Source: Planctomycetota bacterium (lineage in GTDB: Bacteria; Planctomycetota; UBA11346). From it: a stretch of 39,448 nucleotides of DNA. Position 1 is the first letter of the stretch; each line of letters starts with the position of its first letter. Made by a program: the position numbers and the translations under genes. The stretch spans positions 1-39,448 of the forward strand of contig JACDGQ010000001.1 in the NCBI GenBank assembly GCA_013821615.1. Direction: 5' to 3'. The notes below the pieces were generated by a model, which saw only the letters and a list, made by a program, of their open reading frames with translations, made no database searches and was not told where the DNA came from. This document shows, piece by piece, positions 1 to 22,501 of this stretch.

Positions 1-2863
1 GGACAGAGTCCCCCAAGTCTCCGCCCGAAGGTCGCCCGACCACTTGCACCAAAACCAGCACGCGACATCCTCCAACATCCGGCAAGAATTTCTGGAACTT
101 TCCGGCAAGAATTTCTGGAATCCACACCTCCAAATCGCGCTCCCATCCCTGTCGGCCAATGACAGTCAAACCTAGCTCTTCTGGGAGAAGTCGGCCATCG
201 AGGACGCACCAATCCTTATGTAGAGATCCCCCAGAGCCACGAACGCCCTGAATGCCATGATTTCGCTGGGGACGGATTCGCCACGGCAGAGGCGACCCCG
301 CGTTATTTGGTGGCTCGCCTGCTGATTCCGCATCCATCCTTTGGGAGAAATCAGTTAAATCTTCCTGCTGATGAGCGGCGCGCCATTCAGCATAAAGATG
401 CTGATATTGACGATGATGCCTACGACGCATGCGGGGAATACCGGCATATGCTAGTGTGACGTCTATTCGCACTCGAACACCAGAGCGCCGAAGAATGGCA
501 GGTACGGGTACCGCATAGACATGAACCTGATCGACCCCCACTGCAATGCCAGGAGCCGAAACCATGGTCACGCGATGCTCATCGTTGGCGATGGCGCGGC
601 TCTGATCTGGGATCCCATAACCAAGTAGGCGAATGGCTTCGGCATGACGCATCGCGTCGTTCTCTGCCCAAGCCGGCCACCTCGCACTACTAGCGATGAG
701 TGCCCTGATTGTTTGTGCAGTGAGGCTAGGATTGCTGGCCTCGATTGCGGCTGCGATCCCGGCTACTTGTGGGGCCGCGAAGCTGCTACCACTCATGCTG
801 CGGCTGACAGCGGCACGCCCATATAACGTGCTATGAGGCAAAAGTGGGCCAAGAGGATGATTGTGTCCTACGTTATTGGATGCGTCAGAAGCAAAATCAC
901 CGCCAAATGCAACGACATCAGGCTTAACCTCATCAAACCACCCAGGGCCACTACGGGCGAACGCCGAAGGCAAGTTGGGTCCAGCAATATGTTGCCATGG
1001 GGGGGACTGCCATTCTCGATAGGAAAGGGACCCAACCACCAATGCGTGCATAGCGCCTGCAGGGGAGGCGAGCCTGTGCGCATTCTGGATAAGATAGGCT
1101 GGGTAGGTGTGACCTGCGGCAAGAAGCTGTTGGATGTGCCCCGGTGGAAGATTGCCGGTGGGAACGACCATGAGCACATCCTCAGTGGCACTGAGCAGGT
1201 CAATCATGGCAGCCCAGGGATCCATGTGCCCTTGGGGGTCGAATGGCGAATCAGCACTTATCGACTGATTAAAGATGCGTGCCCCGAAACGCCGCCCGTA
1301 ATGAACGGTCGCCCAGGTTGCCACGGTGGAACAGAGCCCCGGATGAAGGTAGCCGTCATCGCTGAGGACGCGCAAGTTGAGTAACCAGCAAGGGTGGCGG
1401 CCATCTGGTTGAGCCAGGCAGTGATCGGGATGAGGATACAGAACTGCGCCGGCTACCAGGGTTCCGTGACCAGACGGCTGCACTCGATCAGCAACATCGG
1501 CATCGCCTGGCAAAAAGCTGCGGCTGACGGTGGTCAGCACAGCATCCTTTATCAGGGGGTGGTCTTCTTGAATGCCGCTGTCGATAATTCCCACGGTAGG
1601 AGCATCTTCGTGCGGTGGACCGGGAATAGGATCTGGTAGCGCCTCCGATCCGACACCGTCTCCGGCGTCGCAAATCAGAGGCGGGACTTCCTCAACGTAA
1701 ACGAGGTGAGGGTATGCTTTTAATAAGGCTTCAATTCCTTGTTTTGATAAAATTACGACGCAGCAGATTTCTTGGGGCGGTTCTGGTTCTGAGACATCAG
1801 GTTCTGTGAAATCCCAAGCATCGTAGTCATGACGAATCCCCGCCACCCGCAGTTGCCGTTGGACCTCATTGCTCGCTCGCAGGACAATCTCATCGCGCTG
1901 CTCCATTGCTTGCCGCTGCAATTCGCGCTCGCGCGCGCGACCCGCTTCAGACCGTGGCGGATTTCCTCCTGGAAACGGAGGGAGATCGGGCAGGGGAAAA
2001 CGAATCTTCCAACGACGAGGCTGATTGCCGTGCGCACTTGACGCCGATATTTTATATGCTGCAGGTAACTCTTTGGCCAACAGGTCAGCAGTAGCCGGAG
2101 GCAGTTGGGTTTCTATCTCTGCCCAATCATTTAAGAAGGGATGATCTGGTTCGTGCAGAAATCTGCCCTGGTTGCTGGAGACGAACGCCATCAACTGCTG
2201 AATGCGTTCTCGCGCAATGGCGCGCCATTGCTGAATACGTTTTTTTCGCCGACCAGCGCGGCGATATCCATGGGAATCTTGGCCTTCATCGTGTGCCTCG
2301 ATATCGCCACCACGAATTCCGGACGTTCCAATCACAATGGTAATAGAGATTTCATCAGCTTGGCCAACCTGATTTAATCGATCGGTCAAGCCAGCACCGC
2401 ACATCAGAGTTCGCCGTTGGCGTTCGTCTGCTTCGATGATCTCCCAAACCGAGGCCATTTTCTTGACGTCGCCCCGGCCAAGTGCGTCTATCTTAGCGAG
2501 TAATTCTTGAAGATTGGTGTCTTGTGAAAATGAAATGATCAACCCGTCATCAAGTTCCGCGAGAAGTTCGATTCCCTCGGCCTCCCACTTGCTGTCATCG
2601 ATGGCAGCGGGGTCGACGCGCAGAAAGAACGGTATGCCCGTGGGTAAATCTGGATAATTTTGCGAATTGACCTGTTGCCTGCCAAGCGCTCTCTGAACTC
2701 CATTCCGCAATCCCAGCGAATGTTGGTTCATGGCGGTCGGACTGGCCAAAATAGCTTTGGTTAGATCACCTGCTGGGGGACCGGGTAATCCTCTCTTTTT
2801 TTTTCGCCGTTTCCCCTGCTGTACCTGAACTAAGGGTAAATGAGGATGCGTAGAAGCTGGCAT
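1..2863 (-). CDS. Subtilisin-like S8 serine peptidase with a ~420-aa N-terminal region of unknown function (IetS-like). The 3' end runs off the left edge of the window.
   Basis: The ORF is not in the supplied track because it has no stop codon inside the window. Hand translation of the minus strand from ATG 2863 is open for 954 codons. The catalytic motifs are in frame with that ATG: TVGIIDSGI (Asp; its GTG codon starts at 1594, and 2863-1594 is divisible by 3), QPSGHGTLVAG (His) and SMSGSSFAAPQVAG (Ser; its ATG codon is at 796, also in frame). No listed minus-strand ORF in 1-2870 shares this frame. The gene starts 10 nt after the AAA+ gene stop. Confidence 0.8.
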   Translation of the reverse strand, partial: MPASTHPHLPLVQVQQGKRRKKKRGLPGPPAGDLTKAILASPTAMNQHSLGLRNGVQRALGRQQVNSQNYPDLPTGIPFFLRVDPAAIDDSKWEAEGIELLAELDDGLIISFSQDTNLQELLAKIDALGRGDVKKMASVWEIIEADERQRRTLMCGAGLTDRLNQVGQADEISITIVIGTSGIRGGDIEAHDEGQDSHGYRRAGRRKKRIQQWRAIARERIQQLMAFVSSNQGRFLHEPDHPFLNDWAEIETQLPPATADLLAKELPAAYKISASSAHGNQPRRWKIRFPLPDLPPFPGGNPPRSEAGRARERELQRQAMEQRDEIVLRASNEVQRQLRVAGIRHDYDAWDFTEPDVSEPEPPQEICCVVILSKQGIEALLKAYPHLVYVEEVPPLICDAGDGVGSEALPDPIPGPPHEDAPTVGIIDSGIQEDHPLIKDAVLTTVSRSFLPGDADVADRVQPSGHGTLVAGAVLYPHPDHCLAQPDGRHPCWLLNLRVLSDDGYLHPGLCSTVATWATVHYGRRFGARIFNQSISADSPFDPQGHMDPWAAMIDLLSATEDVLMVVPTGNLPPGHIQQLLAAGHTYPAYLIQNAHRLASPAGAMHALVVGSLSYREWQSPPWQHIAGPNLPSAFARSGPGWFDEVKPDVVAFGGDFASDASNNVGHNHPLGPLLPHSTLYGRAAVSRSMSGSSFAAPQVAGIAAAIEASNPSLTAQTIRALIASSARWPAWAENDAMRHAEAIRLLGYGIPDQSRAIANDEHRVTMVSAPGIAVGVDQVHVYAVPVPAILRRSGVRVRIDVTLAYAGIPRMRRRHHRQYQHLYAEWRAAHQQEDLTDFSQRMDAESAGEPPNNAGSPLPWRIRPQRNHGIQGVRGSGGSLHKDWCVLDGRLLPEELGLTVIGRQGWERDLEVWIPEILAGKFQKFLPDVGGCRVLVLVQVVGRPSGGDLGDSV

Positions 2864-2872
2864 GTAGGTATT

Positions 2873-3904
2873 TCAGCTATTCATCGCTATCCCATCCTTG
2901 GGCACATGTGCTATCGCACTTTCAATGTGCTTAAGGGACAGGGCTTTAATGTTACCTTCTAGCACAAAATCCTTCGCTGATTCTTCGGCAACGCGGACGA
3001 CACGCGCAGCAGACGAATGTTCGAGTGACTTTGAAATCTTCTTGAATGGAAACCCGGTTTTCAGTGGTAGATTGGAAAGGTGGAGGCGAAGCAACTGTTC
3101 GATCTCATTCAGGCCGGGCTTGGGAATCTCAATAATATCGTCAAAGCGACGGAAAATTGCGTGATCAAGACGGCTGTAAAGATTCGTCGTGGCTACAAGG
3201 AGGCCAGGGCCATCAAAACTCTCCACGAGATCGAGCAATGCATTGACCGTTCTGGCCATTTCACCAACATCCTGCCTATCGCCCGTGCGAGAGCTAGCGA
3301 TGGTATCGCATTCATCTAGGAGCAGCAGGCGCGATCCAGTCCGGCAGGCGTCGAAAATCTTGCGAAGATTGGTCGCCGTTTCTCCTAGATAGCTCGACAC
3401 AACTGCGTCAAAATGCACTTTATAGAGTTGAAGGCCAAGATTGTGCGCAAGTCGCTCCGCTCCGAGCGTTTTCCCGCATCCAGGTGGCCCGTGGAGGAGA
3501 ATTCGACGACGTGGACGAAGGCCAAATTTCGCTAATTCATCGCGGCGCGTGTATTCGGTTTCGATACGTCGGAATTGGGCATCGACTGACGATGGCAGTA
3601 CCATGGCGCTGCGCAGATTCTCTGGGTGCGCTAGCACACCGAGGAACGCACCATCCCTCGATGCTACTGGACTGCCACCAGGGCCGGAACTCACATTGGG
3701 AAGAGGTTTCAGCACCTCCGGGGCACCTACCCGTCGATCGGGGGCATCTAAGCCTTTCTCCATAATCGTTTTGAGCTCGCGCGCCACCTGAGCGTGACCG
3801 AGGCGTTCCTCATCGACCACGATGTCCTCGGCCAGACGCCGAAGATCGGGCTGGGGACTATCTGCGAGCTGGCGGATGAGGCGTCGGAGCAGGTTAACCC
3901 GCAT
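2873..3904 (-). CDS. AAA+ ATPase of the classical AAA/FtsH-Cdc48 type (IetA-like)
   Basis: Walker A is LLHGPPGCGKT and Walker B is LLLLDECD. The second region of homology reads ATTNLYSRLDHAIFRRFD. The track ORF starts at TTG 3946. The first ATG is at 3904 (MRVNLLRR...) with AGGA upstream, so I prefer 3904. Confidence 0.85.
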   Translation of the reverse strand: MRVNLLRRLIRQLADSPQPDLRRLAEDIVVDEERLGHAQVARELKTIMEKGLDAPDRRVGAPEVLKPLPNVSSGPGGSPVASRDGAFLGVLAHPENLRSAMVLPSSVDAQFRRIETEYTRRDELAKFGLRPRRRILLHGPPGCGKTLGAERLAHNLGLQLYKVHFDAVVSSYLGETATNLRKIFDACRTGSRLLLLDECDTIASSRTGDRQDVGEMARTVNALLDLVESFDGPGLLVATTNLYSRLDHAIFRRFDDIIEIPKPGLNEIEQLLRLHLSNLPLKTGFPFKKISKSLEHSSAARVVRVAEESAKDFVLEGNIKALSLKHIESAIAHVPKDGIAMNS

Positions 3905-4006
3905 GGGAGGAGCGTCCTGGACTTGGAAGCCGAGGCAATTGAACAATTGCGCTAGGCGATGGTAGGGGCCGCCACACTTGAGGAAGCAGCAAGGACTTGC
4001 GGATGG

Positions 4007-4408
4007 TCAGGATGGACAGTCTAGCGTGTAGACCCACGCCGTGCCGCTGTTCGGGGCGCTCATCACCACGAGGCACCACGACGGATCACCCGGCTGCGGA
4101 TTGTAGGCCCACTGCAACGTCGCCGATCCCGACACTAGTCCGCCGGTCGAGGCGACCAGGACACCCTTGTAGAAGCAGTCGAGCCGGTCCGGGATCGAGT
4201 ACATGTCATAGGTGATCCGCACAAGGCCGGCGGTGGGGCCGAGGCCGTGGCGGGTCTTGGTGGTGCCCTGACCGCCGCTGGCGGTGGCCTGGCCGCAGGG
4301 TTGCGGCGGGCGCTCGTCGAGCGGGCAGACGTTGCACTCCGTGACCGTCAGGCCCGAACAGGCCGAGGGTTTCAGGTCAGGACAGGTGGTGGCGGCGAGG
4401 CACTTCAC
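4007..4408 (-). CDS. Small Cys-rich hypothetical protein (133 aa from GTG 4408)
   Basis: GTG 4408 overlaps the TGA of the upstream glycosyltransferase gene (a GTGA overlap). The N-terminal third carries 7 Cys (CLAATTCPDLKPSACSGLTVTECNVCPLDERPPQPC). The rest is beta-rich (ITYDMYSIPDRLDCFYKGVLVASTGG...). I recognised no family. This is the last gene before the composition drop. Confidence 0.5.
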   Translation of the reverse strand: MKCLAATTCPDLKPSACSGLTVTECNVCPLDERPPQPCGQATASGGQGTTKTRHGLGPTAGLVRITYDMYSIPDRLDCFYKGVLVASTGGLVSGSATLQWAYNPQPGDPSWCLVVMSAPNSGTAWVYTLDCPS

Positions 4409-5517
4409 CAGCGGCCTCCGGGGCAGCGCGCCACCGGCGATCGAATGCGCTCGGCGATGACGAAACCGCACCCGCAGAGAGCGCACTGGTCGTTGCCGGG
4501 ACGGTAGCGGTCACAGGTCAAGCAGGAGGCTCGGCGGCGATCGATCTCCTCCGCTGTCGGTGGAGTTGGCCGATCGTCCAGCGGCGCCGTGTCGATTAGG
4601 TCGTTGCCCGTCTCGCGCATGACCAGCGACCGATCTGGCTCACGCAGGACAATGGTCTCGGGCTTCGTCCATCCAGGGATCGACGAGACCGAGCGGCCTT
4701 TCCAGGCGTCGATGGAACCGGGCACCACGCGCATGCGCGTGAGCATCTCCTCAATGGCGGCGATGGTTTCAGGGATGCCGCCCCAGACCGGCAGGCAGAG
4801 GCGCTGGTTCCAGCGGTGCATGTCGGCGAAGCGCATGGTTACCGGCATGCCGTCGCGCAGCACCAGGGAGCGACGCTCGTCACCGCGCTGCGGATAGAGC
4901 ACGAGTTGTGGCGTGTCCACCAGCGAGGCGAGATGCCCAATGCCGGAGTCGAGGGTCACTACCACACGTGCTCCGCGTAGCAAACGCAGCGTGCCCGTCA
5001 CCGCGTCGCCGATCGCATCGAGATCCCACGCACGCACGTCGGCAGAAACGTCGACGCTTTCGGCCCGCGATCCGGCAAGGCCGACCGTCCAACCGCGCGC
5101 TTGGATTTCGGCAGCCAGCGCGGCCCACGGCCAGCCATTCTTGGCGTCGGCGTAGGGCTTCGCGCGCGGAGCGAGGACGACGTCCACCGGATACGGCTCT
5201 GGCAGAGCGATGGCCGGCTTGGGATAGGACTCACCGTTCGGCTCCCACGCGCGGAGGTTAGCGCGTGGCCAGTGTTCCTGCGCGATGTGGCGCAGATCCT
5301 CGATGAGGACGTCCGGGCGGATGCCGTAGTCGTAGCCATCGGGATACCGGCTCATCACCGGAGCCCACAGGCGAGAGTCGGGCACGGCCGGGTACAGTGC
5401 GGCGTGCGCGGGATTCCCGCCGATGATGTCGCCGGGCTGGTAATGCACCCAGATCCACGGCAGCACATCGCGGACGAGATCGCCGAAATGACCGAACCAG
5501 GGCAGGAAGACCGTCAT
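4405..5517 (-). CDS. GT9 (heptosyltransferase-like) glycosyltransferase with a C-terminal Cys-cluster extension
   Basis: The segment VVVTLDSGIGHLASLVDTPQLVLYP and the preceding VVLAPRAKPYADAKNGWPW...GWTVGLAGS fit the GT9 ADP-heptose transferase pattern. The C-terminus reads CLTCDRYRPGNDQCALCGCG...RCPGGRW. I prefer ATG 5517 (MTVFLPWFG) because it forms an ATGA overlap with the upstream stop at 5514. Confidence 0.65.
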   Translation of the reverse strand: MTVFLPWFGHFGDLVRDVLPWIWVHYQPGDIIGGNPAHAALYPAVPDSRLWAPVMSRYPDGYDYGIRPDVLIEDLRHIAQEHWPRANLRAWEPNGESYPKPAIALPEPYPVDVVLAPRAKPYADAKNGWPWAALAAEIQARGWTVGLAGSRAESVDVSADVRAWDLDAIGDAVTGTLRLLRGARVVVTLDSGIGHLASLVDTPQLVLYPQRGDERRSLVLRDGMPVTMRFADMHRWNQRLCLPVWGGIPETIAAIEEMLTRMRVVPGSIDAWKGRSVSSIPGWTKPETIVLREPDRSLVMRETGNDLIDTAPLDDRPTPPTAEEIDRRRASCLTCDRYRPGNDQCALCGCGFVIAERIRSPVARCPGGRW

Positions 5518-6632
5518 GCGAGATACCCTCCTTCGGTTTTGCAGGCGCCCCACGTCGAGACGCTCTCCACCGTCCCATCGCTGGAGTAGCCGGCGACACT
5601 GACATTCGTGACGCGACCCTTGGGAGTGACGGTGAGCGTGAGGTCCACGCCACAGTTCGTCGTGCCGCTGGAAAAGAGCCCGGCGCGTGGAGAGATGGTG
5701 ACCGTACCGCCGCCTGCTGCTGGTGTGGTGACCGTGCCATTGGTCGTGCCGTTCGAGAGCTGACCGGCGCCGAGGTACGCCGCATTGGCAGTGCTGACCT
5801 GGATGGTGTCGCCGTAGAACAGCCGAACTCCCGTGCGCCCACCGCAGACATCCGCGGTCAGTTCATTCGAGGTCTGCCGGATGAGCGCCCCGCGCGTCGC
5901 CCAGAGCCAGGACGAGCCATCGAAGGCGAGGTTCAGATGCGCCGTGAACACGCCGACGTATTTGTTGCGGTAGGTCCAGTTCACCTGGGTCTGTGGACGG
6001 GAGAACTCCAGTGTGCTGCTGATGGTGAGCGCCGCGCCGAACTCGGGCTGGTTGGCCGCGAGCCAGGTGTTGAGGGCGCCGAGACTGCCGGCGAAGCCCG
6101 ATACGCCGGAGAGGTAATCCTGCTCATAGGTGGAGTCGGCGCCGTACTTGATCCGCTTGCGGATGGCGAGAGTCGACCGGTCCCACGACAGCGCCGCTGG
6201 CACGCGTCCGGTCCAGCCCACTCGTTGATCGCGCAGCGTGCGGACGCGCACCTTGTTGAGCACCGCACCGAGGCCAGGCAGCGTGGTCATGAGATCCGCG
6301 CCGCCGCGCTGGAGCTTAGCCTGGTTGTAGGTCGTGCTGCCGCTGACGAGGATCTCGTACTCGTCAGCGCGGTCACCGCCGGAGCGCCACGCACGCAGGC
6401 GCACGCCGGGGCGAGTGACGCCGAAGCGTGTGAGTGCGAGCGAGGCCACCTCGGCAAAGAACTCCACGTTGCCGAACTCGAACGGCATGGCAGTGGAGTT
6501 GGCGACATCGATCCACACCAGGTCGGTCCAATGGGCGGTCTCGTCGTCGTAGACCTGCCCAACGGAATTGTCGGCGGTGTCGAGCACCATCGCCACCCGC
6601 ACGCGCACGATCTGATTGAGGACCAGGGCCAT
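5514..6632 (-). CDS. Hypothetical tail or host-recognition module protein (372 aa)
   Basis: The ORF is translationally packed within the tail-fibre region. Its C-terminus is rich in Gly, Thr and Ser. I recognised no family. Confidence 0.5.
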   Translation of the reverse strand: MALVLNQIVRVRVAMVLDTADNSVGQVYDDETAHWTDLVWIDVANSTAMPFEFGNVEFFAEVASLALTRFGVTRPGVRLRAWRSGGDRADEYEILVSGSTTYNQAKLQRGGADLMTTLPGLGAVLNKVRVRTLRDQRVGWTGRVPAALSWDRSTLAIRKRIKYGADSTYEQDYLSGVSGFAGSLGALNTWLAANQPEFGAALTISSTLEFSRPQTQVNWTYRNKYVGVFTAHLNLAFDGSSWLWATRGALIRQTSNELTADVCGGRTGVRLFYGDTIQVSTANAAYLGAGQLSNGTTNGTVTTPAAGGGTVTISPRAGLFSSGTTNCGVDLTLTVTPKGRVTNVSVAGYSSDGTVESVSTWGACKTEGGYLA

Positions 6633-6641
6633 GCGGTGCTC

Positions 6642-7931
6642 CTACAGCCGCGCAAATTTGTCGTGCCAGCCGGCACCGAGGTTGCCGACCGAGACGTTGC
6701 GGGTGATGCGGGCTTCGCAGGTGGTGATCTTGCCGGTGGCCGAGACGGTGATCTGGACCGTGAGCGCGGCTTCGCCGGAGAACAGATTCCGGGTGACGGT
6801 GGTCGTGGTGCCAAAGGCAATGGTCGTCGCTGAGACGTCCCCAGCCGGCTTGGTCTGGGTGATGCTGCCCCACTCGGTGTAGTAACCGGGGACGAAGTTC
6901 CCGTAGATGATGTACCGACCGCCGGAAGCGGTGCGGTTCATGATCACCTGCTGGATGGCCACCACCGCCTGCCAGGCATCGCCGATGGGTGTGAGGAAGA
7001 CCTGGGCATAGGCTGTCTGCTCGATGGATTTCCAGCACGCTTGGCCATAGACCCGGCAGGGATAGATCGGTCCGGGCTGGTTGTAATCCGGGTCGAGATA
7101 GGTCGCCGGGTTCTGCATGAACCACATCGTGTAGCCCAAGGCCCCGTAGACTTCGCAGCCGTACTCGGCGGTTGCGGCTGTGAATTCGAGCTTGAGCGCG
7201 GCGGCGTTTTCGCTGAACCCCAGGGCTAGCGGCTTGAGCTTCAAGAAGAAGCCGAGGTTCTGGCTGGTGCTGCCGGCGGTGAGCACTTGGCCCACCGCTC
7301 CACGGAAGCCGTAGCGACCGACCCAACACGGCACCCGCAAGGGAAGCGGTGCCGCCGCGCTGCCATCCTCCGCGAGCAGCGGACTGTCCACGGTGGCTTT
7401 GGTCGCGTTCCCCGGCGCCTGGATGGTGACATCCGTCAGCGTGCTCAGGCTGTTCCCGCCGTTGGCGGTGAGCCCGGTCACCGCTAGCACCGGCCGATCA
7501 GTACCACCGCGCGTCTGCTGCCCAAGGTAGGCGTTCACCGACCGCGAGGCGAGGTTGCAGTTCCAGGCAGCGAACCCGCTCGCCGTGCTGTGCCGCCAAT
7601 CGAACCACCACCAGGTGGTGAAGACGCGGCCGACCTGCGGCGGGTTGTTCTGCGCCGATTGGACGATCGAGCGGTCGTCCGGGTTTTCCGGATCGCCGGT
7701 GCAGGAGATGCCGACCACATGCGATGGGCTGAGGTCGTACTCGTAGTGCAGCGGCGTGCCGACCGAATCACCGAACGGTTGACGGATCGCGCGGTCGGAG
7801 ATGCCCACCGTCCAGAAGCGGAAAGCTGCGGCGTTGGCCTGCTGTGGAAAATCTCCGGCCCGCAGTCCAAGGGGACGGGGTATGGTCGAACCCAAACCAA
7901 GGTCGAGGAATTGCGGCGTGGCGTCGGTCAT
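6642..7931 (-). CDS. Hypothetical tail or baseplate-region protein (429 aa)
   Basis: The ORF starts 5 nt after the tail-fibre gene stop. It has sensible composition, unlike the overlapping frames. I recognised no family. Confidence 0.5.
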   Translation of the reverse strand: MTDATPQFLDLGLGSTIPRPLGLRAGDFPQQANAAAFRFWTVGISDRAIRQPFGDSVGTPLHYEYDLSPSHVVGISCTGDPENPDDRSIVQSAQNNPPQVGRVFTTWWWFDWRHSTASGFAAWNCNLASRSVNAYLGQQTRGGTDRPVLAVTGLTANGGNSLSTLTDVTIQAPGNATKATVDSPLLAEDGSAAAPLPLRVPCWVGRYGFRGAVGQVLTAGSTSQNLGFFLKLKPLALGFSENAAALKLEFTAATAEYGCEVYGALGYTMWFMQNPATYLDPDYNQPGPIYPCRVYGQACWKSIEQTAYAQVFLTPIGDAWQAVVAIQQVIMNRTASGGRYIIYGNFVPGYYTEWGSITQTKPAGDVSATTIAFGTTTTVTRNLFSGEAALTVQITVSATGKITTCEARITRNVSVGNLGAGWHDKFARL

Positions 7932-7935
7932 CGCA

Positions 7936-10290
7936 TCACATCCACACCGGGACTTGGATGAAGAAGTCGTAGTGGGCGACGGCGGTGCCGGCCTGTCCGG
8001 TCTTCAGCACGCCACATGCGATGGTCCAGGTGCTGGGTGGAATGGTCTTCGTGCCATCGCCCTGGAGCTGCGTGGTGCTGGTGATCCAGGCCACGGCCAA
8101 GCTGGGGTACTCCGGGTAGAGCGTGATCGAGTAGACGTTCGAGCCGGTCTTGGCGGTGATCTTTCCAACCATCGCCGGATGCTGGCCGTGGCTGGTCCCG
8201 CCAGCGGCAGCGCTGTTCTTCCAGGTGCTCGTGGCCGCGTCATAAGCCAGCACCTGCTTGTCCAGCGGCGCGGTGACGGCCACATCTTCCAGCGCATCCA
8301 GGGTGTGGTTGATGAGCGAGGTGACGCCACTCTTCGAGGTCAGGATCTGCAGCGTGCCGCCGGGATTGCCCGGCAGCCGCGTCGGCGCACCGGTGGCCCC
8401 GCCGACGATCAGATCGCCGACCGTGGTCATCGGGTTGGCCAGCAGGTTGGTTACCGGATCGCCCAGGTGGTAGTCAACCCCGGCGATGGTGAGGTAGTCC
8501 TTCACCAGCTTGGCGTTGGTGACGGTGCCATCGGCGATCTTCGGTCCGGTGACGGCGTTCGCCGCCAACTCGGCGGTGCCCACCGCGTTTGCTGCGATCT
8601 GGGCGTTGGCGGTGGTGCCAGTGAGGTCGCCGCCGAGGATGTGGTCGTGCGGTTCCGGCGGGAAGGTCGCCGGAACGTTGGTGAGCTTCGCCCAGGCCAC
8701 TGAGACGACCTTGGGATCGGTGATGGCGCCATCGGCGATCTCGGCGGTGCCCACCGCGCCGGCCACGATCTGGGCGTTCGCCGTCGTGCCGGTGAGGTCG
8801 CCGCCCACCGCGTGGTCGTGCGGCGTGGGTGGGAACTGAAATGGTTTCCCGGTGACCTCGCCCCAATCGGGCCAGCGGATCGCGGTCTGCGGTGGGCCGG
8901 TGATTTTGGCCCAGGCGACGGTCACGATCTTGGCGTCGGTGATCGCGCCATCCGCCACAGCGACGGTGGTGACGGCGTTGGCGGCCAGCTTCGGGGCGGT
9001 AACCGCACCATCGGCCAGCTTGCCCGTCGTCACGGCGGCATCGGCAAACGCGCCGGTCGGGATCTGCAGCCACTGGAGCGTGCCGCCCACGCGCAGCAGG
9101 GCGCGGTCGTCGGTCGTTGCTGCGAACGCGGCCGGACGAGCCGACGCTCCGGTGGCATTGGCGAGCACGCTGGTGCCAGCTACCTCCTTCAGGTCGCCAA
9201 CTTCGAAGTCGCGGAACTCTGGCTTGGCATCCGCTCCCGACACCGGCCCAGCGAGCACCTGATGCGCGGGCACCGGGTCAGCGACGATCACGTCGCGCGG
9301 CTTCCAGCGTTCGGCAGCAGCATCCCACAACGCGGCCTGCTCATCCGTGGGCGGGACCGTGATCACATCCACATCGGTCAGGTCGGCGAAGCGCTCGGCT
9401 CCGCCACCAGCGCCGGCGCTTCCGGCGCGCACGACGCAGAGGCGATCCTGGGCATGGTGCAGGACCAGACGGCCGTTCTCGCTCGGCTTGGTCGGCGTTA
9501 GGCCACCGGGCACGCCGGGGTCGAGCCAGTAGTCGGTGTGTGGCGTCAGACCGTCCAGACAGCAGATGCCCCACAGCACCAGCAACGCGGTGTCCACGTC
9601 AGGAATGCGGCCAACCACTGCCAGGACATCGGTGGAGCCGACCACACCGGCATCCGCCAATGCCCAGGTCGCACCGGTCCAGCGCAGCACGTCGCCGACG
9701 AACCAGGCGTGATTGGTGGCGGTAACGTCCAGCACGAGATTCGGTGATCCGCCGGCAGCACCACCGGCGGGAAATTGGACGATGCCCCAGGCCACGCCAG
9801 TGCCGGGTTCTTTCCACAGGATGCGCGCACCGCCTTCGTCGCCCGTGGCCAAGCTGCCGGTCTCGTCGGTGACGATCGCCGCGAGTTCGTCCTCCTCGGC
9901 ATCGATGTCGAGGCGCATCGGCGTGACGCCGGCGACCATCGCCCGGCCGACGCCATTGGCGGCGATGGGTTCCTGCAGGATGCAGAAGCGGTTGGCGTGA
10001 TCATCCTTGTCCGGCGAGATGCCGCTGAAGGTGATGCGCTCCTGAAACGCCTGCGGATTCTCGCTCGGCAGAATGAGTGGATCGTCGAGGCCGAGCACGG
10101 CGAAGCGGCTCTGGTCGGTGCCCGAGTCGTTGCGGATCAGGACGATGCCGGGGATCGCCACTGTCATGCCACCATCGGCCGAGCGTGACTGCCGGCTGGC
10201 CTGGTAGGCCGTGGCGGCATCGACGAACGAGTTGAAGGTCTCGGCGGAGATCTTCAGCGGCTGCCCGGCCGCGACCTTGGCGAGCGTCAC
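7936..10290 (-). CDS. Tail fibre or central fibre protein with internal tandem repeats and HxH motifs
   Basis: The 784-aa ORF has repeated segments at aa ~415-598. These include short AVTxxKLA/IADGAITDxK units and two copies of FPPxPHDHxxGGDLTGTTANAQI. Its position is downstream of the tape measure and a Dit-like gene. Confidence 0.7.
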   Translation of the reverse strand: MTLAKVAAGQPLKISAETFNSFVDAATAYQASRQSRSADGGMTVAIPGIVLIRNDSGTDQSRFAVLGLDDPLILPSENPQAFQERITFSGISPDKDDHANRFCILQEPIAANGVGRAMVAGVTPMRLDIDAEEDELAAIVTDETGSLATGDEGGARILWKEPGTGVAWGIVQFPAGGAAGGSPNLVLDVTATNHAWFVGDVLRWTGATWALADAGVVGSTDVLAVVGRIPDVDTALLVLWGICCLDGLTPHTDYWLDPGVPGGLTPTKPSENGRLVLHHAQDRLCVVRAGSAGAGGGAERFADLTDVDVITVPPTDEQAALWDAAAERWKPRDVIVADPVPAHQVLAGPVSGADAKPEFRDFEVGDLKEVAGTSVLANATGASARPAAFAATTDDRALLRVGGTLQWLQIPTGAFADAAVTTGKLADGAVTAPKLAANAVTTVAVADGAITDAKIVTVAWAKITGPPQTAIRWPDWGEVTGKPFQFPPTPHDHAVGGDLTGTTANAQIVAGAVGTAEIADGAITDPKVVSVAWAKLTNVPATFPPEPHDHILGGDLTGTTANAQIAANAVGTAELAANAVTGPKIADGTVTNAKLVKDYLTIAGVDYHLGDPVTNLLANPMTTVGDLIVGGATGAPTRLPGNPGGTLQILTSKSGVTSLINHTLDALEDVAVTAPLDKQVLAYDAATSTWKNSAAAGGTSHGQHPAMVGKITAKTGSNVYSITLYPEYPSLAVAWITSTTQLQGDGTKTIPPSTWTIACGVLKTGQAGTAVAHYDFFIQVPVWM

Positions 10291-11098: not shown

Positions 11099-13414
11099 TT
11101 ATCCAAACACCAGTTGGCCGTCCTCGGCAGCGCGCAGCAGTTTCTGGGTATTCTTGGCCGTCTCTTCCGACGCCTTCGCGGTGCGTTCACCGGTGCTGTC
11201 GCCGACACCGAGCTGCCCGATCGCGGCGGCATTGAACGAGCCGGTCACGTCGAGCTTCTGCGCCGCCACGTCGAGCGTCTCGGGCATCCGCGCGAGCTGG
11301 TCGGTGAGCGCCGACAGGTCGGGCAATCCCGTGGCAGCGGGATCTGGAGTCGGCGGGTTGTTGTCGCCCGCGCCGGACATCCGTTCGGTGACCTTGGTGC
11401 GCTGCTGACGCGCCTCGGCCAAGGCCGCGTCCAGTTCCGCGCGTGCCGCATCCACGCCACCGTCACGTTGGGTGAGCTTGTCGGTGAGATCTTGCGAGAG
11501 GCCTTGCAACACCGACTGGCGATCGGCCTCGATCGAGGCGACGCCCTGGTCGCGCGTCTGGCTGCGCTGCGCCCGGCGATCATCCACCGCCTGGTTGTCC
11601 GAGGTCGTCTGCTGCTCGACAGTCAAGGTCAGGCCTTGGTCGGCGATCCCCAGCAGTTCCAGCAGGCTCGCCAGTTTGCTGGCGATGGAGCCGACCGCGT
11701 CGTTCCAAAGCTTCGTAATGCCACCGACCACTGCGTCCCAGGCATCAGCGATGCTGTTCACCACCGTCCAAAACACCTCTTGGACGCCGAACCAAGTCGT
11801 GGCGAAGATTTTGGCAAAGCCGGCAATCGCCGCGTCCCAGAAGTTCAGCAGGAAGCTGGTGCCGCGCTCCCACTCCAGCTTCAACGTCGCCCACACGATC
11901 TTGGCCGCGAGGCCGATATCGCCGGCCGCCAGCGCATCAGCGATGCCACCCCACGCCGCGACCGCGTCGCCTTCCAGCGTCTGGAATCCCGCGCCGAGCA
12001 GCCCGAGTGCCTGCTGGCCGGTCTGGGTCTGCGTGACGATCACCACGCCGAGCGCCACCACGCCAGCGATCACCGCCGCCATCGGCGTCAGTAGCGATCC
12101 AAGAACGCCGCCGAGAAAGATGAACGCCGCTCCTGCCGCGCTGGCGATGGATGCGAGTACGCCCAACCCGGTGCCCACCGCTGACGCGGTGATGCCGAGG
12201 GCGACCAGTCCGAGGCCGACGCTTCCCAGCACCACACCGAGGCCGAGCAGTCCGACCACCAAGCCCTGGTTGCGATCAATCCATCCACGCAGGCCGACCA
12301 GAAACGTCGTCACCGCCTGGGCTGCGTTCAGCAGCGTCGGCGCGAGGGCGCTGCCGATCGCCGTGGCCAGGCCGCCCACCGTGGCGGCGACCCGATCCCA
12401 CGCATCGGCGAGCGCGCCTGCGGCTTCCACTTGGCCGGCGGTCATGCTCGCACCGAGACGACGCGCCTCGCTGCGGAGCGCATCGAGATCCTGAATGACT
12501 GGCAACAGCTTGGTGCCTGATTTTCCGAGCACCGCCATCGCCGCTGCGGCTCGTGCCGTCGGATCGGGAATGCGACGAAGGGCTGTCGCCACCGCCAGAA
12601 ATTGCTGCTCAGGCGTGAGCGCCTTGAGGCGATCCGCCGACAGGCCGAGGCCAGCGAACGCGGCGCGGGTCTGATCGCTCGCGCCGAGCACGGAGGACAG
12701 CGACTTGGTGAGGCCGGACAACGCGCCCTGGGCGGTGGTGAGCGCGCTTGCATCCGGTGCCGGTACAGCCGTCGGTGGTGGCGATCCCGCCGCTGCTGGC
12801 GCAGCGCGGCCAACAGTGGGTGCGCCCACGGCGGCCAACGCTGCACCCAGCCGCTTGGTGTCGCCAGCGATCAGCGCCAACCGTGCGCCGGCTTCGCCCA
12901 ACACCGACACCGCCAGCGCCGCGCGCTTGCCGGGATCCGCGATGCCTGCCAAGGCTGCGGCCACTGCCTGCACGGCACCTGCTGGACCGGCTGCGGCGAG
13001 ATCTTCTGCCTTCAGCCCGAGTGCGCCGAGCGCCTCGATGGCGGCCGGTGCATCGGCTCCGAGATCACCGAGACGCTTCTGCAGGATGCGGACCGACGCT
13101 TCGACATCGTCGAGCGACGCGCCGGATAACCCGGCGGCGTACCCCAACTCGGACAGTGTCTGCACCGGCACGCCGGTGCGCTGCGCCATTTCGGTGAGCG
13201 CGTCACCGGTCTCGGCGAAGTGCTTGGTCGCCAAGGCCAGCGGCGCCAGGATCGCCGCACCGGCGGCGGCTACCTGGGTGCCCAGCGTCCGCACCGACGT
13301 GCCGAACGCCTGGAGCTTCCGCTGCGCGGAGCGCAGACCGGCGGCGAGTTTGCTGTCGTCGGCGGTCAACTCGACGTAGGCGCGCCCGGCGCGGATGCCT
13401 CCGGCGCTGGCCAC
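11099..13414 (-). CDS. Tail tape measure protein
   Basis: The 771-aa protein is Ala/Gly-rich and largely helical. Its N-terminal motif is typical of tape measure proteins (GRAYVELTADDSKLAAGLRSAQRKLQAFG ... LTEMAQRTGVPVQTLSELGYAAGLSGASLDDVEASV). It has a central hydrophobic stretch and sits after the tail chaperone genes. Confidence 0.85.
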   Translation of the reverse strand: MASAGGIRAGRAYVELTADDSKLAAGLRSAQRKLQAFGTSVRTLGTQVAAAGAAILAPLALATKHFAETGDALTEMAQRTGVPVQTLSELGYAAGLSGASLDDVEASVRILQKRLGDLGADAPAAIEALGALGLKAEDLAAAGPAGAVQAVAAALAGIADPGKRAALAVSVLGEAGARLALIAGDTKRLGAALAAVGAPTVGRAAPAAAGSPPPTAVPAPDASALTTAQGALSGLTKSLSSVLGASDQTRAAFAGLGLSADRLKALTPEQQFLAVATALRRIPDPTARAAAAMAVLGKSGTKLLPVIQDLDALRSEARRLGASMTAGQVEAAGALADAWDRVAATVGGLATAIGSALAPTLLNAAQAVTTFLVGLRGWIDRNQGLVVGLLGLGVVLGSVGLGLVALGITASAVGTGLGVLASIASAAGAAFIFLGGVLGSLLTPMAAVIAGVVALGVVIVTQTQTGQQALGLLGAGFQTLEGDAVAAWGGIADALAAGDIGLAAKIVWATLKLEWERGTSFLLNFWDAAIAGFAKIFATTWFGVQEVFWTVVNSIADAWDAVVGGITKLWNDAVGSIASKLASLLELLGIADQGLTLTVEQQTTSDNQAVDDRRAQRSQTRDQGVASIEADRQSVLQGLSQDLTDKLTQRDGGVDAARAELDAALAEARQQRTKVTERMSGAGDNNPPTPDPAATGLPDLSALTDQLARMPETLDVAAQKLDVTGSFNAAAIGQLGVGDSTGERTAKASEETAKNTQKLLRAAEDGQLVFG

Positions 13415-13704: not shown

Positions 13705-13798
13705 GGGCGGTCTCCGTTCGGACAGGGTTGAAGACGTCGAGGAAGAGCCGCGCGATGCCGACGAGTGCCGGCACCAACGCGGAGATGATGGCGGCCAT
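13610..13798 (-). CDS. Possible small N-terminally anchored membrane protein (62 aa)
   Basis: The N-terminus MAAIISALVPALVGIARLFL is hydrophobic. The ORF starts 1 nt after the upstream gene stop. It overlaps the lipoprotein gene by 95 nt in another frame. Whether it is coding is uncertain. Confidence 0.3.
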   Translation of the reverse strand: MAAIISALVPALVGIARLFLDVFNPVRTETARAINDPLAPAADRLARPDRLRDLSRTGGPVP

Positions 13799-13799
13799 G

Positions 13800-14099
13800 T
13801 CAGCCTCCCGTCTTCGGCTGACTCCCTGCGGTTTTCACCTGGGCGCGGGCAGCGGTGTAGCCGAGCGCGGCCAGCACCGACAGAACGCCACCGATGATCT
13901 GGGCGACGATGCCGCCGTCGTGGATGGCGCCGCTCGCCATCACGACGCCGAGCAGCGTGGCGATGCTGGAGAGCCAGAACTCGGTGGTCTGGATGCCCGG
14001 CTTCGGCGGGACAGTGGCCGGGGTCGACGCGGCACCGGAATCCGGAGCGGCATCCTGGGTCCGGGTGATGATGTGGGTGGTCTGGTCGTTGGCGGGCAT
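13800..14099 (-). CDS. Two-TM membrane protein (99 aa, holin-like topology)
   Basis: I chose ATG 14099 (MPANDQ...) because the longer track ORF 13800..14396 has an Arg-rich, implausible N-terminus. Two hydrophobic helices are present: FWLSSIATLLGVVMASGAI and IVAQIIGGVLSVLAALGYTA. Confidence 0.55.
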   Translation of the reverse strand: MPANDQTTHIITRTQDAAPDSGAASTPATVPPKPGIQTTEFWLSSIATLLGVVMASGAIHDGGIVAQIIGGVLSVLAALGYTAARAQVKTAGSQPKTGG

Positions 14100-14101
14100 G
14101 G

Positions 14102-14326
14102 TCAGGTTCCTGTGGTTGGGGGTGAAGAAACAGCAGACACGAAGAGATCGCGCAGGACGGTGAGATCCCGCGTGCGCGGCACGGACTCGCGCGCGTGGTC
14201 GGGATGGAAGTCCGCCGGGGTGTAAGCCCGGTGGCGTTTGGGATCGCGGTGGCAGTTGGCGATCAGGGCCATCAGCGTGGCGGTGTGATTCCACCGCGAC
14301 GCGTCGGCTCCCGCCGCCATCGCCAC
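14102..14326 (-). CDS. Candidate -1 frameshift extension of the tail assembly chaperone (gpT-like part of a G/GT pair)
   Basis: This frame is -1 relative to the upstream chaperone ORF and stays open well upstream of the chaperone stop at 14341. The sequence ...WNHTATLMALIANCHRDPKRHRAYTPADFHP resembles the T-part motif seen in many siphovirus GT proteins. The position directly before the tape measure region also fits. Confidence 0.5.
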   Translation of the reverse strand: MAMAAGADASRWNHTATLMALIANCHRDPKRHRAYTPADFHPDHARESVPRTRDLTVLRDLFVSAVSSPPTTGT

Positions 14327-14340
14327 CAGTTCCCGCAGGG

Positions 14341-14829
14341 TCAGGCCGCCGGCATCGGTTCCGGCGGCGCCGGCGAGTCGCCAGATGAGATCCCACGCGG
14401 AGGTGCGGCGAATGCGGCCTGCACCGCCGCCGCCAGCTCCGGGCTGTCGAGTCTGAGTTCGGCCGCCGCCAGCGCCTGACGCTGCCAGGCGTTCAGCTTC
14501 TCCAGCGCCTTGGTCAGCACCCGGCGCTTCGGGCTCGGGAAAAAACCGACGAGACCCTCCAGCAGCGCGGTGGTTGCGGCGTCGATGACGTCGCCGGCGA
14601 GCGCGCGGCCGAAATCGCCATCGTTGACCTGCTTGGCTTCGGCCTCGGGGCGGATGACCGCGAACAGCACGTCGCAGAGCAGCACCGGGTCTGAGATCAG
14701 GCGATCGATGAGTGTGCCACCGGCCACGTCGAGCAGATCGACGTTGGTGGTGTTGCGCACCCGACGCACGGTGTCGACTGTGATATTGATGGTCCAGACG
14801 CGGCCGGTGGTATCGGTGAACGTGGGCAT
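14341..14829 (-). CDS. Tail assembly chaperone (gpG-like)
   Basis: I chose ATG 14829 (MPTFTDTTGRVWTINITV...), giving 162 aa. The gene lies between the major tail protein and the tape measure. The track ORF 14341..15147 has an implausible N-terminal extension that overlaps the major tail gene. Confidence 0.6.
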   Translation of the reverse strand: MPTFTDTTGRVWTINITVDTVRRVRNTTNVDLLDVAGGTLIDRLISDPVLLCDVLFAVIRPEAEAKQVNDGDFGRALAGDVIDAATTALLEGLVGFFPSPKRRVLTKALEKLNAWQRQALAAAELRLDSPELAAAVQAAFAAPPRGISSGDSPAPPEPMPAA

Positions 14830-14849
14830 GGGAGTTTTCCTGACGAGGA

Positions 14850-15299
14850 TCAGAGGGTGATCCACGCCGGGGGCGTGGCGGAATAGCCGGGCTTGGCAGT
14901 GACTTTCACCAACGCCGCCTCTTCCAGCGGCTGGGTGAACTCCATGTTGGTGATCATCGCATCGCAGCTCAGGCCCTGGGTGCCGTTGGTGCCGGAGGCG
15001 GGAATGAGTCCGTCGAGCACGCGCAGGCCGATGACCGCGTTGGCGAAATACGCCGTGCGGATGGCGGTGAAGCCGGCGTCCGCAGTGTCGTAGATCATCT
15101 CGAACTCGATGTTGCCGCTCTTGAGCGTGGCGAGGCTGGCCTTCCACCCGTTGTTGGCGCGCGTGGTGACATCGGCATCGCCACCCTCGATGGTGAGCGT
15201 CACGTCCTTGGCGTTACCCAGGATGGTCCAGGCGTTGGCCGACGCCTGGCCACCGGTCTTGTAGTAGAGCTTGCAGTCGAGGCCGAGTTTGGCGGGCAT
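14850..15299 (-). CDS. Major tail protein (TP901-1/phi13-like family pattern)
   Basis: The 149-aa sequence is MPAKLGLDCKLYYKTGG...WTILGNAKDVTLTIEGGDADVTTRANNGWKASLATLKSGNIEFEMIYD. This matches the conserved pattern of that major tail family. Confidence 0.8.
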   Translation of the reverse strand: MPAKLGLDCKLYYKTGGQASANAWTILGNAKDVTLTIEGGDADVTTRANNGWKASLATLKSGNIEFEMIYDTADAGFTAIRTAYFANAVIGLRVLDGLIPASGTNGTQGLSCDAMITNMEFTQPLEEAALVKVTAKPGYSATPPAWITL

Positions 15300-15311
15300 G
15301 GATGGATTCCT

Positions 15312-15746
15312 TCAGCGGATGGAGTTGCGCCAGTGCGGCGGCAGACGTGGCACCTCGGCGTCGAAGGCCGGGCGCATGAACGGACGGGGCCGGTAGTGGG
15401 CGAGGTAGCTGCGGCCCCAGCGGCTGCGCGTCGCGGTGCCGCCATATTCCAGCAGCGGCGGTGTGTCGCCTTGGCCCTTGTTGAGTCGTACCGGGCCGAT
15501 CACCACCGAGCGGCGATCCCGGTCCCACGCGAAGTACAGATGCTGGCGCAGCAGGCCGACGTGCGACGACGGCGGCGAACCAGGCGGGCTGGGATTCGCG
15601 CGCGGTCGGATCGAGGTCTTCGCCCGCTGCCGGACGAAGGCCCCGAAGCGCGACAGCACCTTGCGCTCCGCGACCGTGGTGGCGTTTTGCACCACCGCCC
15701 GGTCGAAGAATCCGGCCTTCGCCTGCTTCAACGTCAGTCCGATCAC
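15312..15746 (-). CDS. Tail completion or neck protein (HK97 gp10-like by position and weak pattern)
   Basis: GTG 15746 forms a GTGA overlap with the upstream stop, giving 144 aa (VIGLTLKQAKAGFFDRAVVQNATTVAERKVLSRFGAFVRQRAK...). Confidence 0.45.
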   Translation of the reverse strand: MIGLTLKQAKAGFFDRAVVQNATTVAERKVLSRFGAFVRQRAKTSIRPRANPSPPGSPPSSHVGLLRQHLYFAWDRDRRSVVIGPVRLNKGQGDTPPLLEYGGTATRSRWGRSYLAHYRPRPFMRPAFDAEVPRLPPHWRNSIR

Positions 15747-16282
15747 GGACCGACTCCCACACCCTGGATCACGATCGACGAGCGCGGCGGCCCTGGCCAG
15801 ATCTGCGCCAAGAGCGGCCCGTTGTTGCGGAGTTCGACGTGCATGATTTCGCCCGGCGAGAGCTGAACGAGGTGCGACGCCTGGGCGCTGATCGGGAAGA
15901 GCTGCTGACTGGTGAGCACGAAGGACTGCTCGTTCTCCACGATCTGCGAGTTGCGCATGAAGCGCAGGCTGATGCCGCCGGTTTGCGCACCAACCGGCTG
16001 GAACAGCAGGTTCACCTGGAAGAGGTAGGTGCCGGGCAGCGGCGGCTGGAAGCGCCAGATGGCCCCGGTCCGGATGGACTGGTGCGAATCCACCTCGACC
16101 ACGCCGAAGTCGAGCGGCTGCCAGATGCCCGGTGGCGGCACGGGCAACGGTGGCAGCACCGCGCGTGCGTACACCGCGAGCGCCGACGTTGCGGGATCGA
16201 AGCCGCCTGGCGGACCCGGAGGACCGGGCGGTCCCTGAATGCCGCCGCCGTTGCCGACCGAGCCGATGTTGCCCATCACCAT
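15743..16282 (-). CDS. Collagen-like triplet plus C1q/TNF-like jelly-roll candidate (179 aa)
   Basis: ATG 16282 gives MVMGNIGSVGNGGGIQGPPGPPGPPGG. This is followed by ~140 aa with a beta-sandwich-like pattern (WRFQPPLPGTYLFQVNLLF ... ISLRFMRNSQIV ... GEIMHVELRN). Confidence 0.55.
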   Translation of the reverse strand: MVMGNIGSVGNGGGIQGPPGPPGPPGGFDPATSALAVYARAVLPPLPVPPPGIWQPLDFGVVEVDSHQSIRTGAIWRFQPPLPGTYLFQVNLLFQPVGAQTGGISLRFMRNSQIVENEQSFVLTSQQLFPISAQASHLVQLSPGEIMHVELRNNGPLLAQIWPGPPRSSIVIQGVGVGP

Positions 16283-16533
16283 GTGCCACCCACCACGGTC
16301 ACGCGACCGCCGAATTGGCCGCGCACACGCAGGTCGGCCAGGTTGATACGAGGAAAGCTGTGCCACTCCCCAGGCTGCCACGGCACAGCGTCGCCGAGGT
16401 CGCCCTCGAACTCGATCGGGCCGGGGTTGGTCGGCAGGGCGAGGACATCGACGGAGGCGACTTCCTCCTCCAGCGCCGAGCAGGGTTGCCACTGCGGAGT
16501 GACATCGATCACCCGTTGGACGAGGTTGTTCAT
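16276..16533 (-). CDS. Hypothetical head-tail module protein (85 aa)
   Basis: The start forms an ATGA overlap with the upstream gene. The composition is acidic and plausible for a protein. Confidence 0.45.
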   Translation of the reverse strand: MNNLVQRVIDVTPQWQPCSALEEEVASVDVLALPTNPGPIEFEGDLGDAVPWQPGEWHSFPRINLADLRVRGQFGGRVTVVGGTW

Positions 16534-17663: not shown

Positions 17664-17670
17664 GCCGTCC

Positions 17671-18003: not shown

Positions 18004-18068
18004 GGATCAGCTCCGATTCAGGGAAGGTGTGGGGATAGACCGGGCCGAGGTGTACGCCTCTCGTTTTC

Positions 18069-19909: not shown

Positions 19910-19927
19910 CGTGGAGTTCCTCTATTC

Positions 19928-19966: not shown

Positions 19967-19970
19967 TGAT

Positions 19971-22470: not shown

Positions 22471-22501
22471 CAGCACCTCCGTGGACCGGGCCGGTTCGCT
22501 G

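Follow-up and report, generated by a model that had tools for sequence, protein, structure and literature searches.

Two-gene systems of the IetAS family consist of an AAA+ ATPase, IetA, and an S8 protease, IetS. Gao et al. reportedly identified IetAS as anti-phage in 2020, and the Bacillus cereus system is said to have been tested by Stokar-Avihail et al. The original description of the family concerned a toxin-antitoxin system for plasmid stability in pTiC58, with the protease IetS as the toxin and the ATPase IetA as the antitoxin (PMC13069673, PMC5006074), and a homologue stabilises the Salmonella island SGI1 (PMC5006074). Protease activity is required for phage defence by IetAS, ietA mutants were not constructible, and in 2026 the anti-phage mechanism was still stated to be unknown (PMC13069673, PMC5006074). 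For the B. cereus system the mode of action is abortive infection, and the trigger is YosG, a protein of SPbeta (bioRxiv 2022.08.27.505566). Here we report on an ietA-ietS pair at the very start of contig JACDGQ010000001.1 from the Planctomycetota assembly GCA_013821615.1, whose entire length of 39,448 nucleotides (nt), in the following called the window, was analysed. The locus is very likely a horizontally acquired two-gene cassette of this toxin-antitoxin/abortive-infection family, in which ietS has been disrupted by an insertion sequence (IS) of the IS21 family and which is probably disabled.

An earlier note on this DNA had described an AAA+ ATPase with the motifs GPPGCGKT and LLLDECD, followed on the same strand by an open reading frame (ORF) of more than 954 amino acids (aa), whose C-terminal half was taken for an S8 subtilase with an intact triad. 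It had placed the pair in IetAS, suggested profile searches and a check for in-frame stops in 1-2863, and seen a block of low guanine-plus-cytosine (GC) content beside a prophage. Our results agree with it on all of these points. Both genes are encoded on the minus strand in the order ietA, ietS, with a 9-nt spacer between the ietA stop codon and the ietS ATG at 2863; an alternative ietA start, TTG at 3946, would give 357 aa. From the ATG at 2863 the frame is open to window position 1, i.e., over 954 codons with zero stops. IetA matches the PADLOC model PDLC02196 (E = 1.3e-60, residues 6-328 on model positions 7-315 of 374) and IetS the model PDLC02198 (E = 1.3e-60, residues 408-850 on positions 241-697 of 795). 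The top NCBIfam matches are IteA_antiphage for the ATPase (5.5e-50, 170.6 bits) and IteS_antiphage for the protease (1.2e-27, 96.5 bits), while Pfam returns AAA (3.4e-27) in the former and Peptidase_S8 in the latter (Table 1). The NCBIfam equivalog cut-offs, 510 bits for IteA and 900 bits for IteS, are both missed. Since the scores stay far under these cut-offs, the window pair is a new, divergent IetAS subfamily member rather than an orthologue of the tested systems.

The complete ietS coding sequence is absent: it is cut after codon 912 of 959, and IS sequence replaces a C-terminus that is conserved in relatives. Four sister alleles (P0034-P0037), which belong to the same 90% cluster and are 91-93% identical, all have normal ends, and the complete allele P0036, read from the same start codon, comprises 959 aa. 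These alleles as well as P0003 and P0002, a 52%-identical protein of 969 aa from a Spiribacter metagenome-assembled genome (MAG), continue GWERDLE-AQLPYTLVVSMEA...stop, and the segment after GWERDLE contains a conserved LPY(T/A)LV...E..G...PIYAE followed by the stop. The window allele departs exactly after E912 (GWERDLE-VWIPEILAGKF). A further contig, L001 (GCA_020064125.1), was found via an exact look-up of IetA; it equals window 1-5702 with eight mismatches and reaches 453 bp beyond window position 1, where the frame is still open at 1105 codons and is rich in Arg, Gly and Pro. DNA homology to the intact loci on contigs L004 and L003 ends at L001 5574-5576, corresponding to window 127 (blastn). 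In a structural model of P0002, the breakpoint falls immediately ahead of the final strand (924-933), which has a predicted local distance difference test (pLDDT) value of ~93; the lost segment is conserved in the family consensus. The window allele is without this last strand and the terminal helix, and at least 193 unrelated residues stand in their place.

The replacing sequence has the features of a transposon end. Outward from window position 126 it reads TGTGGA, followed by a 20-nt direct repeat (TTCCAGAAATTCTTGCCGGA) in two identical copies, at 101-120 and 78-97, which are 23 bp apart from start to start and for which zero matches are expected by chance. Terminal inverted repeats of IS21 contain at least two direct repeats (L1/L2, R1/R2) 23 bp apart and a terminal CA (PMC10122671). 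The layout of the tip agrees exactly with this description. Past the repeats, L001 contains a GC-rich hairpin with a perfect stem of 13 bp, which we read as a terminator, the T-run being on the istB strand, and the 3' end of istB (last 70 codons, L001 6153-5941, minus strand), which reads toward the tip. This istB fragment matches Pfam IstB_IS21 (9.4e-14, model 183-235 of 238), and its stop lies 363 nt from the IS tip as counted on L001. Because of the TG at the breakpoint, the repeats spaced by 23 bp and the istB end directed toward the tip, we conclude that an IS21-family element was inserted after ietS codon 912; codons 913-954 (window 1-126) are accordingly best interpreted as read-through into an IS21-type terminal repeat. 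In the IS region, window and L001 differ only in bases 109 and 112, both inside repeat R1. The confinement of these differences to R1 fits a multi-copy IS that breaks assemblies, and so does the end of the contig after 126 nt of the element.

The ietS lesion is recent, since the ratio of nonsynonymous to synonymous substitution rates (dN/dS) of ietS, 0.19 between window and L004 and 0.13 between window and L003, is near the value of 0.125 found between the two intact alleles, and since the pair contains zero other stops or frameshifts; dN/dS of ietA is 0.12. The truncation has likely led to loss of protease function, with a predicted misfolding of the C-terminal domain and probably of the enzyme. 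Most likely, the locus is what is left of a defence/addiction module that was disabled recently and whose ietA survives intact as an orphan. A toxin half knocked out by an IS next to an intact antitoxin ATPase fits the reported toxicity of IetS.

Several points weigh against this interpretation. We infer the loss of function from the truncation, and some subtilases tolerate loss of the C-terminal domain. The scores below the NCBIfam cut-offs make any transfer of function from the tested IetAS systems an extrapolation. In the available sequence, which covers 579 bp of the element, neither istA nor the other IS end, a 3' remnant of ietS or a target-site duplication was found, and the distance of 363 nt between istB and the tip comes from a single count on L001. 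Exact-pattern scans for the IS end motif gave 0 matches each in GTDB genomes and JGI metagenomes, and a DNA search of PLSDB plasmids with the IS end returned one irrelevant 40-nt match and no second copy of the IS. Finally, the three contigs that contain the junction (window, L001 and L002) possibly stem from one sequencing run and would then not be independent replicates.

The gene pair forms a discrete cassette of 3.9 kb (window 127-3999), which is also present in the metagenome contigs L004 (96.5% identity) and L003 (94.9%); the flanks of the three copies are unrelated. Homology between window and L004 starts 95 nt upstream of the ietA ATG, at L001 1704 or window 3999 (blastn), and homology between L003 and L004 stops exactly at the ietS stop codon. 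GC content is 55.3% in 127-3999, compared to 67.4% in 4000-5553, 66.4% in 5554-35555 and 71.2% in the host genes, and GC at third codon positions is 0.51-0.54 in the cassette versus 0.80-0.96 elsewhere (0.86 in the adjacent 133-aa gene). The pair is located at the tail-fibre end of a prophage of ~30 kb, with the integrase and the tRNA at the opposite end. From the tail-fibre gene, a tightly packed co-directional string of genes with 4-nt overlaps extends via 6642-7931, 5514-6632 and 4405-5517 to the 133-aa gene. Lying directly behind this late operon in the same orientation, the cassette could be cargo carried by the phage.

Table 1. Coordinates of the cassette, the IS tip, the prophage genes and the adjoining host gene in the window.
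Feature	Position	Strand	Remarks
IS21-family tip (right terminal inverted repeat)	1-126	minus	TG at 126-125; contig ends inside the IS
ietS remnant	127-2863	minus	codons 1-912 of a 959-codon S8 protease gene; last 47 codons and stop gone
IetS C-terminal beta-sandwich, residues 750-912, truncated	128-616	minus	without final beta-strand and C-terminal helix
IetS Peptidase_S8 catalytic domain, residues 421-749	617-1603	minus	PF00082, 2.2e-30; top Foldseek matches are subtilases
IetS N-terminal region, residues 1-414	1622-2863	minus	alpha/beta modules and long helices; Pfam label Y4kK_N
ietA	2873-3904	minus	343-aa classical AAA+ ORF from ATG at 3904; stop at 2873-2875
Cassette leader upstream of ietA	3905-3999	minus	common to other cassette copy; boundary ~3999
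133-aa gene, last of string	4007-4408	minus	phrog_26008; stop 7 nt before cassette
Tail-fibre gene	7936-10290	minus	PHROG
Tape-measure gene	11099-13414		PHROG
Portal	18069-19709	minus	
Large terminase	19971-22310		
ParB-methylase	24121-25506	minus	
Primase-polymerase/helicase	25732-27963	minus	
Second helicase	28311-30008		
Serine recombinase	33859-35613	plus	
tRNA-Pro(GGG)	35556-35634	minus	
RND efflux pump	35681-39103		host

In IetA, the Walker A motif GPPGCGKT comprises residues 139-146 (window 3467-3490, with K145 at 3470-3472) and the Walker B motif LLLDECD residues 194-200 (window 3305-3325); the pore loop S170-S-Y-L-G-E175, TTN (239-241) and RRFD (252-255) are present as well. Walker A, Walker B, the sensor-1 TTN, the RRFD arginine-finger and the pore-loop motif SS[YF][LF]GE are invariant in 21 aligned IetA homologues, which were drawn from more than 4000 matches of mostly ~335 aa. 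Such a set of motifs is the hallmark of classical AAA+ machines that thread their substrates. Searching the PDB by sequence yielded no solved IetA or IetS and solely generic subtilisins and Cdc48/p97, with Cdc48/p97 D2 domains as the nearest solved structures of IetA.

In IetS, the catalytic residues D428 (window 1580-1582), H466 (1466-1468) and S694 (782-784) and the oxyanion residue N571 (1151-1153) are invariant in the aligned homologues. The full-length homologue P0002, modelled with AlphaFold2 (pLDDT 82; predicted template modelling score, pTM, 0.87), consists of three parts, namely N-terminal alpha/beta modules with long helices (~1-420), the subtilase domain and a C-terminal beta-sandwich, whose strands lie within 771-933 and are followed by a helix at 940-951. 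In the PDB, Foldseek matches this model best to subtilases to which a C-terminal beta domain is attached, ProN-Tk-SP (3afg, 2e-20) and KP-43 (1wmd), and also to furin and PCSK9. The N-terminal half of about 420 aa had been noted earlier as matching nothing recognisable. This is not upheld: the region is family-specific, carries a weak precomputed Pfam label, PF27160 (Y4kK_N), and is common to the 556 protein clusters that a profile search retrieved among 1.84 billion representative proteins. Members with a full-length N-terminal region are mostly 830-880 aa long, and eight out of ten sampled ones have Peptidase_S8 directly after it. The profile of 302 positions covers window residues 4-413, so that the region is ~110 aa longer here than in most relatives. 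Modelled alone, the N-terminal 414 aa reach a pLDDT of 79 and a pTM of 0.75, and Foldseek found nothing better than E = 0.25 for them in the PDB. The region has a family-specific fold; its position suggests a regulatory or sensing role.

We also observed two members of the IetS family outside the window, P0322 (651 aa) and P0383 (639 aa), in which both the N-terminal region and the C-terminal domain are retained. The part in between is reduced in size, Pfam detects no S8 domain in it, and the motifs DSG, GHGT and GTSxA are absent; the two proteins look like pseudo-protease relatives.

From these observations the following course of events can be proposed. A two-gene cassette would have been acquired horizontally and placed 7 nt after the last gene of the tail-fibre string of the prophage. 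IetA would probably work as a hexamer that threads proteins and holds IetS in check or remodels it, as suggested by the conserved aromatic pore loop and the Cdc48/PAN-like AAA module, and the N-terminal alpha/beta region of IetS would probably be its regulatory or sensing part. A phage-derived signal would free IetS, which would degrade essential proteins. An IS21-family element has entered ietS after codon 912 of 959, removing the last beta-strand, the terminal helix and the stop; the frame continues into the IS, where it adds at least 193 junk codons, and the contig breaks inside this IS. The protease would most likely be misfolded and inactive, with ietA left as an intact orphan.

As to the role of the intact cassette, it may have been mainly an addiction module, stabilising the prophage or an island by post-segregational killing, and defence would not have been its main role. 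The discovery of IetAS as a plasmid-stability system of pTiC58, the stabilisation of SGI1 by a homologue and the location of the cassette at the edge of an integrated element, at what looks like an integration hot spot, all point in this direction. However, addiction and defence are not mutually exclusive, tested IetAS systems also protect via abortive infection, no att repeat was found in the window that would place the cassette inside the prophage, and nothing in the sequence discriminates between the two roles. We regard a predominance of addiction as possible, yet rather unlikely.

The junction between ietS and the IS could also be a chimera of metagenome assembly, in which case the real genome would contain an intact ietS of 959 codons and the assembler would have jumped into a repeated IS. 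All of the sequence is metagenomic, the contig ends within a repeat, the difference of two bases between window and L001 in the first terminal repeat suggests collapsed IS copies, and the three junction contigs may share one sample. On the other hand, the position of the break is, to the exact base, that of a transposon tip, a TG with canonical R1/R2 repeats 23 bp apart, as transposition yields. A k-mer mis-join would need sequence common to ietS and the IS, and none is visible; furthermore, two other assemblies, L001 (NCBI metagenome) and L002 (Logan), give the same junction. A chimera is therefore improbable, and we hold to an insertion of the IS into ietS.

That the protease ORF has no stop in the window had been noted before, and this is correct; its giant size and missing stop stem from the IS disruption, however, and not only from the contig end. 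If the ORF were merely cut by the contig end, the real protein would be an IetS variant of more than 1100 aa with a novel functional C-terminal extension, as the open 954 codons in the window and 1105 in L001 might suggest. We rejected this as very improbable. The extension, being rich in Arg, Gly and Pro, is junk-like, has no homologue and overlaps istB on the opposite strand as well as the IS21 terminal repeats; long open frames are expected by chance in DNA of 62-65% GC; and every relative, including the 91-93% identical alleles, ends no more than ~50 residues past the breakpoint with the conserved strand that is absent here.

A housekeeping chaperone/protease pair, of the proteasome-ATPase-like or FtsH-like quality-control kind instead of a mobile defence or toxin-antitoxin module, was likewise rejected and is hardly conceivable, for although IetA also matches the PAN, Cdc48 and FtsH family models and has Cdc48/p97 as nearest solved structures, these matches cover the generic AAA module only and score below IetA/IteA, the best profiles of the pair are IetA and IetS, the mobile low-GC cassette in three unrelated contexts and its disruption by an IS argue against a housekeeping or essential role, and zero relatives were confirmed among 185,579 GTDB species representatives with the patterns tried.

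Our searches for further copies of the cassette were negative: no relative was confirmed in the GTDB species genomes searched with the IetS alignment, nothing was found among the IMG/VR viral contigs searched with the IetS alignment and the neighbouring GT9-like protein, and a DNA search for the cassette in PLSDB plasmids gave no match. An exact-protein look-up of the 133-aa gene, aimed at a cassette-free site, returned just the same two contigs.

The leader contains a 23-nt direct repeat (TTCCAAGTCC...CTCC) on the minus strand, with one copy at window ~3980-3999, at the cassette edge, and one at 3905-3927, just before the ietA start, 74 nt apart; in L004 the copies are located at 178-200 and 252-274. 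Judging by its placement, the repeat could be an autoregulation operator or a recombination site. A sigma-70-like promoter was not found in the leader. In L004, two tandem 18-nt repeats (TGYCTGGCCYCCTATTAT) at 143-178 abut the cassette upstream, and four copies of a 38-nt repeat lie downstream of it at 4269-4466; another mobile element may have its ends or binding sites here.

It is tempting, if doubtful, to consider the ~960-aa IetS lineage, composed of the window protein, the four metagenomic alleles and the Spiribacter MAG protein, as a distinct IetAS subtype, whose N-terminal region would perhaps sense another trigger and which would spread as an exact-ended two-gene cassette, beginning 95 nt before ietA and finishing at the ietS stop, with no recombinase of its own. 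If this were true, defence cassettes would pass between mobile elements in a manner not recognised so far. In any case, a subfamily with an enlarged N-terminal region unlike any solved fold is worth including in studies of IetS control.

Two practical consequences concern genome annotation. Before calling an open-ended ORF at a contig edge giant, one should look for a mobile-element junction. Moreover, PADLOC-type finders would probably report the present locus as IetAS despite its broken toxin gene, and dead copies would thus enter the counts made from MAGs.

The pair had been described as lying near a tRNA, which does not hold: the sole tRNA is found at the prophage's integrase end, ~31.6 kb from the pair. 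There, the serine recombinase ORF overlaps the tRNA by 58 nt on the opposite strand. A duplicate of the tRNA-Pro/att region was sought within the window, and only short matches at chance level appeared; a missing att duplicate is as expected for a serine-recombinase phage. The best named relatives of the resistance-nodulation-division (RND) efflux pump next to the prophage, with 63-65% identity, come from Tepidisphaeraceae, Phycisphaerales and Planctomycetes MAGs, and the host is hence Planctomycetota-like. In a relative with an 82%-identical RND pump (L006), the same site beside the pump (AcrB) is occupied by another element, which has a tyrosine integrase (13756-23001), and because of this the site looks like an integration hot spot. 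In a 94%-identical relative (L005) the contig ends at the same pump-adjacent spot, and no unoccupied site was seen in the contigs of these two relatives.

Regarding the prophage itself, the closest INPHARED phages are only 26-28% identical in their terminase, which is uninformative on the host; the prophage belongs to a poorly sampled phage group. Its portal, an ORF of 546 aa, matches lambda-type Phage_portal_2 (6.8e-53) and Phage_capsid_4 (9e-27), and an equally long ORF lies opposite to it at 18129-19787, as is typical of high-GC DNA. The ParB-methylase is a fusion of ParB-N and an N6_N4 DNA methylase, and the primase-polymerase/helicase combines Prim-Pol and AAA_25. Of the eight mismatches between window and L001, five fall within 12 nt (window 5589-5600), near the junction of the GT9-like gene and its upstream gene, and may reflect micro-heterogeneity or a small recombination patch.

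Compared with known systems, the IS resembles IS21 and IS5376 of the IS21 family in its terminal TG/CA, its two end repeats 23 bp apart and istB as the last gene toward the right end. In contrast to these, we have 579 bp of the element only, without istA, the left end and a target duplication.

The catalytic fold and the C-terminal beta-sandwich of IetS are shared with Tk-SP (3afg), KP-43 (1wmd) and furin-type subtilases (Foldseek 2e-20 to 3e-17). However, these are secreted or processing proteases without an ATPase partner, their identity to the window IetS is 13-19%, and they have no counterpart of its N-terminal 414 aa. Closer in architecture are the Y4kK_N S8 peptidases (PF27160) from the Spiribacter salinus MAG, Nostoc and Chryseobacterium, which show the same order of N-terminal region, S8 domain and C-terminal beta domain; the window IetS shares 51-53% identity with the full-length Spiribacter protein. 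Most of these peptidases measure 830-880 aa, whereas the window protein and a few close relatives have ~110 extra N-terminal residues.

The core ATPase-protease pair is also the same as in ietHAS (Liu-DS4; PMC13069673), which combines IetAS with an SNF2 helicase. L003 recalls this arrangement: at 4115-9049 it contains the intact cassette, then two small ORFs, a DUF3670-SNF2 helicase of 900 aa, which is ZorD/DpdE/DrmD-like according to PADLOC (1e-115) and lies 1.3 kb downstream of the cassette, and a protein of 359 aa. Nevertheless, a three-gene system of the ietHAS type was rejected, as no helicase adjoins the window pair and the L003 helicase lies outside the conserved cassette, with a different GC content and two small ORFs in between.

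SgiAT (S026/S025) of SGI1 likewise combines an IetA-like antitoxin with an IetS-like toxin on an integrated mobile element, which it stabilises (PMC5006074). SgiAT is intact and was experimentally found to be toxic and neutralised, whereas the window copy is interrupted; we liken the two by description.

The closest counterparts are the tested IetAS systems, i.e., the one of Agrobacterium pTiC58, the anti-phage systems and that of B. cereus. Unlike these, the window copy resides in a Planctomycetota-like MAG and has lost the last 47 ietS codons, and its N-terminal 414 aa remain unaligned, with the PADLOC and NCBIfam matches beginning at model positions 241-243. Our finding leaves the current understanding of the IetAS family unchanged and widens its range by a host that is Planctomycetota-like and a subfamily whose N-terminal region is enlarged. 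What the window pair has in common with the tested systems is the two-gene operon of an AAA+ and then an S8 gene on one strand, a full-length match to the PADLOC IetA model and a match to the IetS model over the protease and the C-terminal domain, an intact catalytic triad and intact ATPase motifs, and a locus on or beside a mobile element.

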